The notes under the pieces are model-generated. The model worked only from the letters and a program-made list of their open reading frames with translations, ran no database searches and was not told the origin of the DNA. From IMG/VR virus record IMGVR_UViG_3300028804_000002, positions 84,086 to 148,085 of that record: a stretch of 64,000 nucleotides of DNA; one strand, 5' to 3'. Of this stretch, positions 10,766-35,011 are shown in pieces. The translations under genes and the position numbers were made by a program. Position 1 is the stretch's first letter; every line of letters starts with the position of its first letter. The stretch comes from a virus. Its lineage: Duplodnaviria > Caudoviricetes.

Positions 10766-10856
10766 AATTTTTAATTTAAAAAATAAGGCCCTCTAATTTT
10801 ATTTAAAGGGCCTTTCGGGTTTAAGCATCAGCGGGAAGTGCTAACAATTTAAATAG

Positions 10857-11222
10857 TGGAGGTGTCCGGGGCGAACCGGAGTCCAAACATTGATTAATAA
10901 ACCTATTCTTACAAGCTTAGTACTGTATTTCTACTGCACCGTAAGGGGCTCGAATGCCGAGCGCTCCACCAGATGGTTCAAAACCAACAATTCTGCTTTT
11001 TTGATATCGATTATGTTCCTAAGGAGATACCTACCTTGTGCAATTAAGCGGCCATTTTTACTGAGTAAGAAGAACCTGCTTTTCTGCTGGAGAAAGCCAT
11101 ATTGATGATCTTTGCTCCGTTGTTTGACGTTTTGTCATTTATTGTTTAGTGATTATTTTAAGAATCACTGACTATTGCTTGCAGATTTACCTTTCAAATG
11201 CTGTCAAAACATACACACCCCC
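10857..11222 (-). ncRNA. ssrA: tmRNA (SsrA)
   Basis: 5' GGGGGTG pairs with 3' CACCTCC-A including G3:U70; TTTGAC after the acceptor; T-arm CCGG-TTCGC-CCCGG; internal tag ORF ends ...MAA-TAA (11136-11044). Confidence 0.92.
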
Positions 11223-23579: not shown

Positions 23580-23653
23580 TGATCCGGATTGGATTCGAAC
23601 CAATGGCCCTCAGCTTAGAAGGCTGATGCTCTATCCAACTGAGCTACCGGACC
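23580..23653 (-). tRNA. tRNA-Arg(TCT)
   Basis: GGTCCGGTAGCTCAGTTGGATAGAGC...CTTCTAA...GGTTCGAATCC; full cloverleaf, CCA not encoded. Confidence 0.95.
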
Positions 23654-23700
23654 AATTATGAAATTATTTAAATTTAAATTAATAATTAATTATTCCAAAG

Positions 23701-23786
23701 TACTGATAAGAGGAATTGAACCTCCACTCGCATTACTGCGAACAGGATTTTAAGTCCTGCGTGTCTACCAGTTCCACCATATCAGC
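23701..23786 (-). tRNA. tRNA-Leu(TAA)
   Basis: GCTGATATGGTGGAACTGGTAGACAC...CTTAAAA, long variable arm, GGTTCAATTCC. Confidence 0.95.
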
Positions 23787-23789
23787 ATG

Positions 23790-23863
23790 TGGACCCACCT
23801 GGGCTCGAACCAGGGACCCGCAGATTATGAGTCTGCTGCTCTAACCGGCTGAGCTATAAGTCC
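23790..23863 (-). tRNA. tRNA with CAT anticodon, probably Ile2 (lysidine)
   Basis: GGACTTATAGCTCAG...CTCATAA; paired G1-C72 and no three consecutive G-C anticodon-stem pairs, so not fMet. Confidence 0.85.
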
Positions 23864-23919
23864 AGATTAAAAATGGAGCTGACTCCCCAGCCAGCTCCTT
23901 TGGTGATAAAAATCCTGTT

Positions 23920-24156
23920 TTATACAGGCACACTCTTTAAATTTCTTGAACCTCTTGCAGGTATAGGTCCATGCCCAAATGCAGCACTAGCTGATATAGG
24001 TGTACCTACTTTATTTCTTCTGTAAGATGGAGAACATACTGTACAAGCAGCTTGTCCGTTTTTGTTAACATTATGTACTCTCATTCCTTTACCATACATT
24101 TTATCCTGGTCTTCATGTTGACAGGTACAATGCAAAATTTCTGTTCTTTCAGCCAT
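23920..24156 (-). CDS. Small Zn-binding protein
   Basis: MAERTEILHCTCQH...HN...CTVC; ATG 24156. Confidence 0.6.
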   Translation of the reverse strand: MAERTEILHCTCQHEDQDKMYGKGMRVHNVNKNGQAACTVCSPSYRRNKVGTPISASAAFGHGPIPARGSRNLKSVPV

Positions 24157-24352
24157 AATAGGTTTTTTAAATCCAGTAAAATCTACCACAACACCATACA
24201 CCTATTGATTGTTTTGGTGGAGGTGGCGGAGGATTAAAAATTGTTACGCATATCATATTTGGTAACTTTTTTCAGTTCAAAATTACAATTAGTCCTGTCC
24301 AGTACCTTCATAAAAGATATTAGAATTCAGGATATCACTACTTAAAATAACT

Positions 24353-24598
24353 TTAACCATTTTCGTTAGTTTTAGAAGCTTTTTTTATTTTTTTATTATG
24401 ATCTTTCATATCAGCAATTCTAAAAAGGGGTAACCACCAATATAAAAAGATTAATCCATATATATGAGCTGGTGATTTTGCTACATCTATAAAAGATTTA
24501 TCTCCTAATGTTGATATACAGAAAGATAATAATAAATAACCTAAAAAGCCAATTAATAAATACTCCAGAAACATTCTGAAGTTTGAATATTTTTGCAT
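24353..24598 (-). CDS. 2-TM membrane protein
   Basis: Hydrophobic helices. Confidence 0.55.
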   Translation of the reverse strand: MQKYSNFRMFLEYLLIGFLGYLLLSFCISTLGDKSFIDVAKSPAHIYGLIFLYWWLPLFRIADMKDHNKKIKKASKTNENG

Positions 24599-25013
24599 CT
24601 GTTTTGTTTTAAAGTCCCGTATAGTAAGAAATAACTGTATAAAGTATGCCTACACAACCTAACCATGCTACTGCTACAAATATATAGAATATTGTTTTAT
24701 CTGTAGAGTTCATCTTGGAAGGCATAGTCATTATTATTCTATACAAACAATAGATACTAATTGGTATTAATAAAGATAACATAAGAAGTTTATTTAAGAG
24801 GTTAATTTACATATAAAGTCAGCAATAATACCATCATATCCTATTAGCCAGATATTTGGTCCTATTTTTATTATATACATAATAATAGAAATTTAATGGG
24901 GGCAGCTCATAGTGATAAATTGACCTGCAGCAACAGATTTATACCTATAATAAAAGATAAGCCCCTAAAAGGCTAGTGTTATACGACACATCTTTCACTT
25001 GTATTATACTTTA

Positions 25014-25490
25014 CTATGAGCTGTAGTTATTTTTAAGAAATTCTTTATGAATAAGTACGTCAGGCTCAAATTTTAGACTTTTTTCATTATAGCCAGAACT
25101 TATTATTAAATAATCTACTTTATTCACTTTAATATTTTGCATATCTTTATAAATAGCATTTAATGTTTTTCCACTTGACATGAAATCATCTATTATTATT
25201 TGTAAAGCTATACTATGTCTATATGAATAGTAACTACATTGGTGAGATTGTTCATTCGGTTTTTTTACATGACATATTTTACATGCATAATTATTTTTGA
25301 ACAATATATAAGAAAATATACCAGCAATTAAAGCTCCACTCCCACCTCTACACCATATATTACATGGACGTTTATATTTATTGTGTTTTATAAATATTTC
25401 TGCTGCTTCTTCTGCATATTTTATTAAACTCGGAGGATCATCGCCAGTGGGGTAGGTATCAATAATATTGTTGATAATAAGATGTTCCAT
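25014..25490 (-). CDS. Type I phosphoribosyltransferase-like protein
   Basis: PRPP-binding IIIDDFMSSGKTL, RGGSG. Confidence 0.8.
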   Translation of the reverse strand: MEHLIINNIIDTYPTGDDPPSLIKYAEEAAEIFIKHNKYKRPCNIWCRGGSGALIAGIFSYILFKNNYACKICHVKKPNEQSHQCSYYSYRHSIALQIIIDDFMSSGKTLNAIYKDMQNIKVNKVDYLIISSGYNEKSLKFEPDVLIHKEFLKNNYSS

Positions 25491-25492
25491 AA

Positions 25493-25555
25493 GAAGAATT
25501 AGATAAATGTACTTTATTATGCTCTAATTGTCATAGAGAAGAGCATGAAAAATTG
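25493..25555 (+). pseudogene. C-terminal remnant of an HNH endonuclease
   Basis: EELDKCTLLCSNCHREEHEKL, preceded by an in-frame TAA. Confidence 0.65.
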
Positions 25556-25626
25556 AGGTCACAGTTGGATTCGAGCCAAGATAAGTAGTTTTGCAAACTA
25601 CGACATAACCACTCTGACATGCGACC
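25556..25626 (-). tRNA. tRNA-Cys(GCA), slightly degenerate
   Basis: GGTCGCA/TGTGACC-T acceptor, GTAGT-TTGCAAA-ACTAC; T-loop CTCGAAT and one T-stem mismatch. Confidence 0.8.
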
Positions 25627-34023: not shown

Positions 34024-34067
34024 ATAAATAAAGATTAGCCCAGGATATTACTACCCCAAGCTAACCT
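34024..34067 (-). terminator. Terminator-like hairpin
   Basis: Minus strand aggttagcttgggg-tagtaata-tcctgggctaatct then ttatttatt. Confidence 0.55.
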
Positions 34068-34074
34068 AAAGAGA

Positions 34075-34311
34075 TCAATCTTCTACAAAATGAAAACTAT
34101 TTCTATGTTGAATAAGCTCATTTCTTTCAGCTTGTAATTCATCAACAAGATAGTTCCATTCAAGATTATACTGATAGTTATCAGATATATCTTCAATATC
34201 CTCAGCAGTAACACGATTAGATTGTTTAAGAGCTTTTATTTCTAACAGTTCTTTATCAATCTCATCTATTCTCTGTTGAGTCTGTTCTTCAGTGAGGTCA
34301 TTAATGGTCAT
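34075..34311 (-). CDS. Small acidic helical protein downstream of hammerhead ribozyme
   Basis: 78 aa, D/E-rich. Confidence 0.65.
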   Translation of the reverse strand: MTINDLTEEQTQQRIDEIDKELLEIKALKQSNRVTAEDIEDISDNYQYNLEWNYLVDELQAERNELIQHRNSFHFVED

Positions 34312-34322
34312 AAAATAAGTTT

Positions 34323-34371
34323 AGGTTAGACATATAATATGTTTCGACTATTTAAGTCTCATCAGTAACCT
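34323..34371 (-). ncRNA. Type I hammerhead ribozyme
   Basis: Minus strand AGGUUA-CUGAUGA-GACU(uaaau)AGUC-GAAA-CAUA(uua)UAUG-UC/UAACCU; all core nucleotides and three stems intact; GUC cleavage between 34329 and 34328. Confidence 0.92.
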
Positions 34372-34445
34372 TTGGTTATTGAAGGGTGTAATATCATCCT
34401 CACACACCTTTATTTTGATGAAAAACTAATGTTTTAGTGTTATAT

Positions 34446-34640: not shown

Positions 34641-35011
34641 AGTTAGAGGTTTAAAACACTATCCGCAGCAATCTAATAGAACTCCGGCCATACAGCCGGC
34701 TCTTATTAGATGCTTTGGACAGTCAATTATCTACTAGCATGAGACTAATAGACTTTTAATTTAATGTGTCAGAGGTTAATTAATTCATTTAAAAGCTTAA
34801 TATTAATACTTACTTAAACATATCTTTATCATATATCTAATAGCACATGCCTTTAGGACTTACAGGATATTAATATTAAAAGCTTTGGATAATACTTATT
34901 TTAAAGGACAAATAACCTAACAGAATAGTACTATAAAAGTAAAGGCATGAAAAACAAGAACACAACGCATTTCTACGCTGTGTTCTCCGCTACAATCTCA
35001 TGCTTGGTCTT

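Follow-up and report, generated by a model that had tools for sequence, protein, structure and literature searches.

The 3' strand of stem I of a predicted hammerhead ribozyme, located in front of a small phage gene, has a second complementary partner directly behind the same gene at the foot of its terminator-like hairpin, and the long-range 5'/3' helix between the two, which would compete with both the terminator base and stem I, is probably real given its recurrence at the same positions in related cassettes. Judged from its sequence, the hammerhead itself is genuine and of a known kind, namely a type I ribozyme of the phage intercistronic family for which self-cleavage is predicted. As a whole, the observations are best explained by an ordinary hammerhead of this family accompanied by a separate and conserved helix having antitermination as its likely output, an explanation to which we give slightly less than an even chance.

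The stretch of DNA analysed here (the window) covers the final 64 kb of an IMG/VR virus record, 148 kb long and rated complete, that belongs to a tailed phage, genes for the large terminase, the portal and the major head protein being identified. The phage also carries a tmRNA (RF00023, 72.9 bits) and four tRNAs, found at 10854-11222 and 23580-25626 of the window on the minus strand. A search of INPHARED phage DNA with a query of 4.5 kb around the hammerhead site gave 0 matches. The elements of the cassette are the following.

34371-34323, minus strand: predicted type I hammerhead, with the full core (CUGAUGA, GAAA, GUC) and three stems
34371-34366 and 34328-34323, minus strand: stem I, 6 bp, AGGUUA paired with UAACCU (from sequence)
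34365-34359, minus strand: core CUGAUGA (from sequence)
34358-34346, minus strand: stem II, 4 bp, GACU-UAAAU-AGUC (from sequence)
34345-34342, minus strand: GAAA (from sequence)
34342-34330, minus strand: stem III, 5 bp, ACAUA-UUA-UAUGU (from sequence)
34329, minus strand: cleavage C of the triplet GUC, predicted cut after this C
34329-34320, minus strand: segment L, CUAACCUAAA, made of the cleavage C, the stem I 3' strand and AAA; predicted 5' end of the processed mRNA
34311-34075, minus strand: acidic ORF of 78 aa (P0001, hereafter ORF78; from translation), with its ATG 17 nt past the cleavage site and its TGA at 34077-34075
34070-34061, minus strand: segment R5, UUUAGGUUAG, beginning 4 nt past the ORF78 stop
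34067-34022, minus strand: intrinsic-terminator-like hairpin (34067-34032) with U-rich tail, from a terminator scan

The hammerhead and its family

The complete conserved core of the hammerhead, including the A15.1-U16.1 pair and the NUH triplet, is present between 34365 and 34329, and the cmscan alignment displays no deviation in the core. The Rfam type I model (RF00163) aligns end to end with 24.1 bits and an E-value of 0.005 in a local search, this being its sole match in the 148-kb genome. The score is below the gathering score of 34 because the model is composed mainly of eukaryotic and satellite sequences and the short stems found here cost score. The minimum free energy fold of the 63-nt stretch 34380-34318 is the hammerhead secondary structure (-8.2 kcal/mol), in which stem I is the open one and loops cap stems II and III. 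Covariation was observed in related loci: GACU/AGUC of stem II is replaced by GGCU/AGCC in L014 and GGUUA/UAACC of stem I by GGUUU/AAACC in L019, and the sequence of stem III is different in each contig with an identical core. The RAGATH-1 hammerhead variant (RF03152) has in common with the window hammerhead CUGAUGAGACUU...CGAAAC as well as the upstream hairpin of the model alignment; with 26.7 bits against a gathering score of 56.3, the window hammerhead is not a member of RAGATH-1.

The first-pass annotation had proposed that a hairpin directly upstream, UAACC-AAA-GGUUA, can sequester the 5' strand of stem I. This hairpin is present at 34378-34366 (minus strand), but as a sequestor it is weak (-2.4 kcal/mol), the fold that uses it reaching -6.7 kcal/mol, which is 1.5 kcal/mol worse than the hammerhead fold, with a pair probability of about 10%. 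It is kept only in L013, whose ORF is 95% identical, and is absent from the other type I hammerhead lineages, L014 and L019. The hairpin may have arisen as a direct repeat of the leader that has since decayed, and a repeat of this kind placed before stem I would automatically pair with the stem I 5' strand.

The exact core and stem II were found in ten viral contigs, in which stems I and III vary with compensation, and a looser pattern recovered family members from more than 120 viral contigs, a lower bound. Among the matches listed, 121 of the 139 pattern matches have a complete hammerhead fold, which the pattern does not require, at least 172 complete type I hammerheads were parsed in 126 loci, and the next ATG typically follows the cut site by 22 nt (median; interquartile range 20-24). 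Stem I is near-invariant throughout the family (GGUUAA/UUAACC; viral contigs L036-L155, also L004-L011), and the stop codon of the upstream ORF often lies within stem I or the core. This arrangement is seen in L005, L008 and L010, where the stop of the upstream ORF falls in one of these two parts and the following ORF begins about 20 nt past the cut. Again among the matches listed, 63 pairs of adjacent hammerheads were compared, and stem I is common to 43 of them, stem II to 4 and stem III to 3. An identical hammerhead core was also observed in a phage tRNA array (L002:2595-2672, also L003), between tRNA-Asp, which ends at 2592, and tRNA-Gly, which starts at 2673, with a predicted cut about 8 nt 5' of tRNA-Gly.

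Perreault et al. (2011; PMC3088659) described clusters of several intercistronic hammerheads around single genes of prophages and phages, proposed processing into single-gene mRNAs as their role, and sought circles, of which none were found. The window hammerhead is comparable to these in being intergenic and located a few nt 5' of a start codon, several such ribozymes per operon being present in many related phage contigs. It departs from that description as a type I hammerhead with an open 6-bp stem I of near-invariant sequence, and also because its stem I 3' strand has a conserved partner 250 nt downstream at the terminator, no such partner being given in PMC3088659.

Leader and terminator complementarity among ORF78 relatives

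ORF78 was compared with PHROG and Pfam and no family was found above the cut-off; with the TscT toxin family (PF07342) it has a weak, sub-threshold likeness (17.3 bits where the cut-off is 27, E 0.0066), insufficient for naming it. Twelve homologs with 63-95% identity were recovered, and the extra homolog searches added four loci only, three in metagenome contigs (L031-L033) and one in a viral contig (L034). The leader and terminator comparison covers nearly all ORF78 homologs. Several of these loci are peculiar in other respects. L035:1501-1740 holds an ORF78 copy in which codon 52 is changed from TGG to the stop codon TGA; its cassette is otherwise intact and identical to that of L030. In L016:760-1130 (also L017 and L018), the ORF homolog lies between copies of a 16-nt direct repeat, TCTCTATCTCTTATTT, and a terminator resembling that of the window sits 5' of the ORF instead of 3', which points to cassette shuffling. 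L027:1210-1269 contains a candidate type III hammerhead (RF00008, 29.1 bits, E 1e-4 in a local search) with one extra U after CUGAUGA, so that the ORF78 gene family would be served by two hammerhead topologies.

The first-pass annotation had reported that the stem I 3' strand together with the cleavage C is the exact 10-nt complement of a segment which begins 4 nt past the ORF stop and overlaps the 5' arm of the terminator-like hairpin. Both observations were confirmed on the minus strand, where 34329-34320 is complementary to 34070-34061; the first 3 nt of R5 are outside the terminator stem and its last 7 nt constitute the base of the 5' arm. The hairpin has an energy of -20.2 kcal/mol and, by sequence, the form expected of an intrinsic terminator, a G+C-containing stem followed by a U-tract. 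Hairpins with U-tails are found likewise 3' of the ORF in L013, L014, L019, L027, L028, L030 and L033. A degenerate hammerhead inside the terminator was ruled out, no CUGAUGA or GAAA being present within it.

The 10-mer of L and R5 occurs at just these two sites in the 64 kb. The window is AT-rich and holds 155 exact 10-nt inverted pairs within 400 nt, compared to 113 +/- 17 in shuffled sequences, and a comparison of the window leader (32 nt) with the post-stop stretch (28 nt) gives a P of about 0.011 against shuffled leaders. The significance of the 10-mer in this single genome is modest, and it is the comparison of homologs that lifts the L:R5 pairing above chance. For this comparison the helix was defined as the longest contiguous pairing between the 32 nt 5' of the ATG and the 28 nt 3' of the stop, and helices were tabulated by script locus by locus, a whole-cassette MAFFT alignment having misaligned the leader and R5 of L027, L033 and L034. 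The L:R5 helices have the following lengths.

Window: 10 bp
L013: 10 bp
L014: 11 bp, one of them G-U
L028 and L030: 12 bp, one of them G-U
L033: 11 bp
L019: 8 bp
L027: 7 bp

P values against shuffled leaders are 0.000-0.011 for the window, L013, L014, L028, L030 and L033, and 0.07-0.11 for L019 and L027. A complement of 7-12 bp is found again at these two positions in four or more diverged ORF78 lineages, R5 starting in every case 0-4 nt past the stop codon. The conservation and covariation in homologs by which the annotation had suggested checking the pairing were both seen, two substitutions and one deletion of 1 nt being compensated: U to A with A to U in L019 (AAACC with GGUUU), A to U with U to A in L027 (CCUU with AAGG), and in L033 a leader short of one C with a partner short of one G (AACCU/AGGUU to AACU/AGUU). 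Compensatory changes within the 6 nt shared with the terminator all preserve the terminator's own stem too, and about six lineages are too few for a formal covariation test. In six lineages the helix takes in 6-7 nt of the terminator base, and in each lineage 1-5 bp, formed between an A-run of the leader and a U-run, extend beyond the terminator stem. The terminator itself is therefore no explanation for those pairs. In the window, L027 and L033, L complements R5 better than does the 3' arm of the terminator itself.

The complement is not shared by the whole family. Comparison of the leader with the post-stop stretch gave none in L012, L016, L023, L024 and L032, and weak or ambiguous ones in L034 (6 bp) and L031 (an 8-mer of A and U only), these two classes amounting to about half of the ORF78 family. 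As for other hammerheads of the ribozyme family, among the matches listed, 8-nt complements to the leader, sought over 1.2 kb, occur downstream in 4 of 117 and upstream in 5 of 117, with 13 for the reversed word. They are as rare there as in the controls, and the extended complement consequently belongs to the ORF78 cassette and not to the ribozyme family. A scan of viral contigs with the leader 18-mer returned six unrelated AT-rich matches, none with a downstream complement, which serve as negative controls, and a scan for the pattern of R5 plus terminator returned seven copies of one unrelated sequence.

The longest complements (11-12 bp) are those of L028, L030 and L033, in which there is no hammerhead. 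L028 and L030 nest within a hammerhead-bearing clade (support 92/91), implying that the hammerhead was lost there and leader L kept. In L027, the cut site of the candidate type III hammerhead is upstream and the leader is just outside the ribozyme.

Folding models and competing explanations

Energies and pairing probabilities were obtained by nearest-neighbour folding, in models that ignore hammerhead tertiary structure, ribosomes and kinetics. The L:R5 duplex has an energy of -10.5 kcal/mol, compared to -4.7 kcal/mol for stem I and -20.2 kcal/mol for the terminator hairpin, only the A/U-rich foot of which is contested. In agreement with the competing strands of the first-pass annotation, L:R5 is mutually exclusive with hammerhead stem I and with the terminator base. 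The models favour this pairing in nascent RNA, at the stage where the terminator has its 5' arm and still lacks the 3' arm: L:R5 then has a mean probability of 0.74-0.96 in seven homologs (L013, L014, L019, L027, L028, L030 and L033), and of 0.05 in the equivalent nascent construct of the window. With constructs ending 22 nt past the stop, 8-12 pairs between leader and post-stop stretch are expected in all eight positive loci, the window giving 9.35 against 0.65 with shuffled leaders, and 0-6 in loci without the complement. Forcing L:R5 in the window costs 1.2-1.3 kcal/mol in nascent and full-length RNA alike, and the terminator dominates the full-length window RNA at equilibrium, L:R5 being at about 8-16%. 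In uncleaved L013 and L019 RNA, the equilibrium model gives a probability of 0.92-0.93 to L:R5 and of 0 to stem I; R5 takes the leader from the 6-bp stem I in these models and, therefore, cleavage would not be needed to free L. A comparison of cognate and non-cognate pairs of leader and terminator by RNAduplex was too noisy, as G-rich terminator arms pair with anything.

According to the preferred explanation, the hammerhead would cut read-through transcripts and leave a short 5'-OH leader on the ORF78 mRNA. Three helices that share strands would be involved: stem I, between its 5' strand (H5) and L, the long-range L:R5, and the terminator base, between R5 and the 3' strand R3. As R5 leaves the polymerase, L could capture it ahead of the synthesis of the 3' arm, which would weaken the terminator base and let some polymerases continue into the tightly packed genes from 33976 to 31228. 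Antitermination is taken as the likeliest output because the helix overlaps the terminator base, and not free 3' UTR, in every lineage. Once the mRNA is released, closure of the message by L:R5, bringing the start codon (8-15 nt from L) next to the stop codon (0-5 nt from R5), is possible by analogy with the hbs and icaR messages discussed below. The ribozyme would set the 5' end and could hold L temporarily; it would not act as the sensor, since the helix does not depend on its presence. A signal for the choice of helix might come from a ribosome sitting on the 17-nt leader, or on the stop codon located 4 nt ahead of R5.

The first-pass annotation had instead coupled self-cleavage to read-through, such that the uncleaved hammerhead holds L and lets the terminator form, cleavage frees L for pairing with R5 and thereby allows read-through, and the rate of the ribozyme times the early block. 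Such gating would suit the chain of mutually exclusive helices made by H5, L, R5 and R3, the concerted change of all four strands in L019 (A/U to U/A) and a 6-bp stem I that would dissociate easily after cleavage. It is nevertheless improbable, since the state of the ribozyme is not required for the helix: the loci devoid of hammerhead retain L:R5, the type III hammerhead of L027 leaves L outside the ribozyme, and R5 displaces H5 in the models of uncleaved L013 and L019 RNA. The upstream sequestor that would support the gate is not conserved, and the timing is unfavourable as well, for a polymerase transcribes the approximately 260 nt from L to R5 within seconds and hammerheads without obvious tertiary contacts usually need tens of seconds or longer for cleavage. 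The RNA circle put forward as another outcome is unlikely on chemical grounds, since the two ends would be a 5'-OH and, roughly 40 nt past the helix, the 3'-OH left by the terminator; a search of the phage genome for RtcB found none.

The main rival to the preferred explanation, possible though somewhat doubtful, is that the complementarity is a by-product of cassette architecture. Intercistronic elements, whether hammerheads or hairpins, would all be closed by the same GGUUA(A)/(U)UAACC helix, L would be complementary to R5 because it resembles R3, and L:R5 would be unused; the terminator may have evolved from the downstream member of a tandem hammerhead array, or else the shared ends may act as recombination linkers. 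This would fit the near-invariant stem I that most adjacent family hammerheads have in common, the second hammerhead with the same stem I placed at the ORF stop codon in L005, L008 and L010, which is the position of the terminator here, the break of homology between relatives at module ends, and the ORF of L016-L018, shifted relative to the terminator and flanked by the direct repeat. It does not account for a helix that reaches 1-5 bp past the shared 6 nt into flanks used by neither stem I nor the terminator, nor for the loci where L outdoes the terminator's 3' arm as complement of R5, and tandem arrays of the family, among the matches listed, are without such an extension. Repeated modules with the closing helix are also not above background across the window, and their genome-wide counts are equal on both strands. 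The flank pairs argue against a pure by-product, with a strength limited by the small number of lineages, about six. That the complementarity arose by chance in AT-rich DNA is very improbable. The excess of exact inverted pairs in the window and the roughly 50 ribozyme positions available for choosing would speak for it; it is opposed by the recurrence at the same positions in diverged lineages with compensatory changes and by the six unrelated viral occurrences of the leader 18-mer that have no complement, and the homolog loci are not near-identical recent copies, ORF identity going down to 58%.

Between 30 and 37 kb, the minus strand has AGGUUA at 34918, 34371 and 34067 only. The first of these lies in an intergenic stretch of 371 nt (34641-35011, minus strand) downstream of a strong terminator (34987-34956). 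The pair that it could form with UAACCU at 34778 was considered as a further closing helix and rejected, the enclosed fold being not above shuffles (z = -0.78).

Relation to known systems and significance

Terminator/antiterminator attenuators such as the trp leader, T-boxes and riboswitch expression platforms hold their segments in one compact leader. The window cassette is similar to these in having a mutually exclusive chain of pairings, 1:2 (stem I), 2:3 (L:R5) and 3:4 (terminator), and a conserved alternative helix, with compensatory changes, that sequesters part of the terminator 5' arm. Unlike in attenuators, segments 2 and 3 are split by the whole 78-codon ORF, the terminator comes after the gene, and no ligand, tRNA or leader-peptide sensor is evident in the cassette. 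PeSL elements of T4-type phages are stem-loop cassettes that shuffle early genes, with many copies of the same type flanking early ORFs in each genome. A repeated stem-loop cassette of this sort was considered and rejected, the closing helix being at background level genome-wide.

Long-range pairing between 5' and 3' UTRs has been described for B. subtilis hbs, where 14 bp overlap an RNase Y site (PMC5737220), and for S. aureus icaR (PMC3868564). In common with these, the helix proposed here has a length in the range of 10-14 bp, connects the two ends of a short mRNA, extreme 5' leader and 3' UTR, and shares nucleotides with a leader cleavage site. It differs from them in that the cleavage site is that of a ribozyme and not of a protein RNase, the 3' partner is the foot of a terminator, and the system is a phage cassette predicted from sequence and folding models.

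What bacterial and phage hammerheads do has been an open question since 2011, and they are usually dismissed as simple intergenic cutters. Here a stem I strand has, at the terminator behind its own gene, a further conserved partner, and this pairing outlives the ribozyme in relatives. A broader proposal, which we regard as unlikely, is that stem I strands are kept constant, and are extended here, so that each processed message pairs its own 5' end with its 3' element, the whole acting as a three-state RNA device that would couple ribozyme folding and cleavage, translation and read-through. Should the helix prove to be a by-product, it would still mark the exchange of hammerhead and terminator at the same module boundary. 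If it is functional, it would provide a model for how early messages of phages acquire their ends and control read-through and, possibly, translation, and would explain the constraint on stem I sequence in a family of more than 120 viral contigs.
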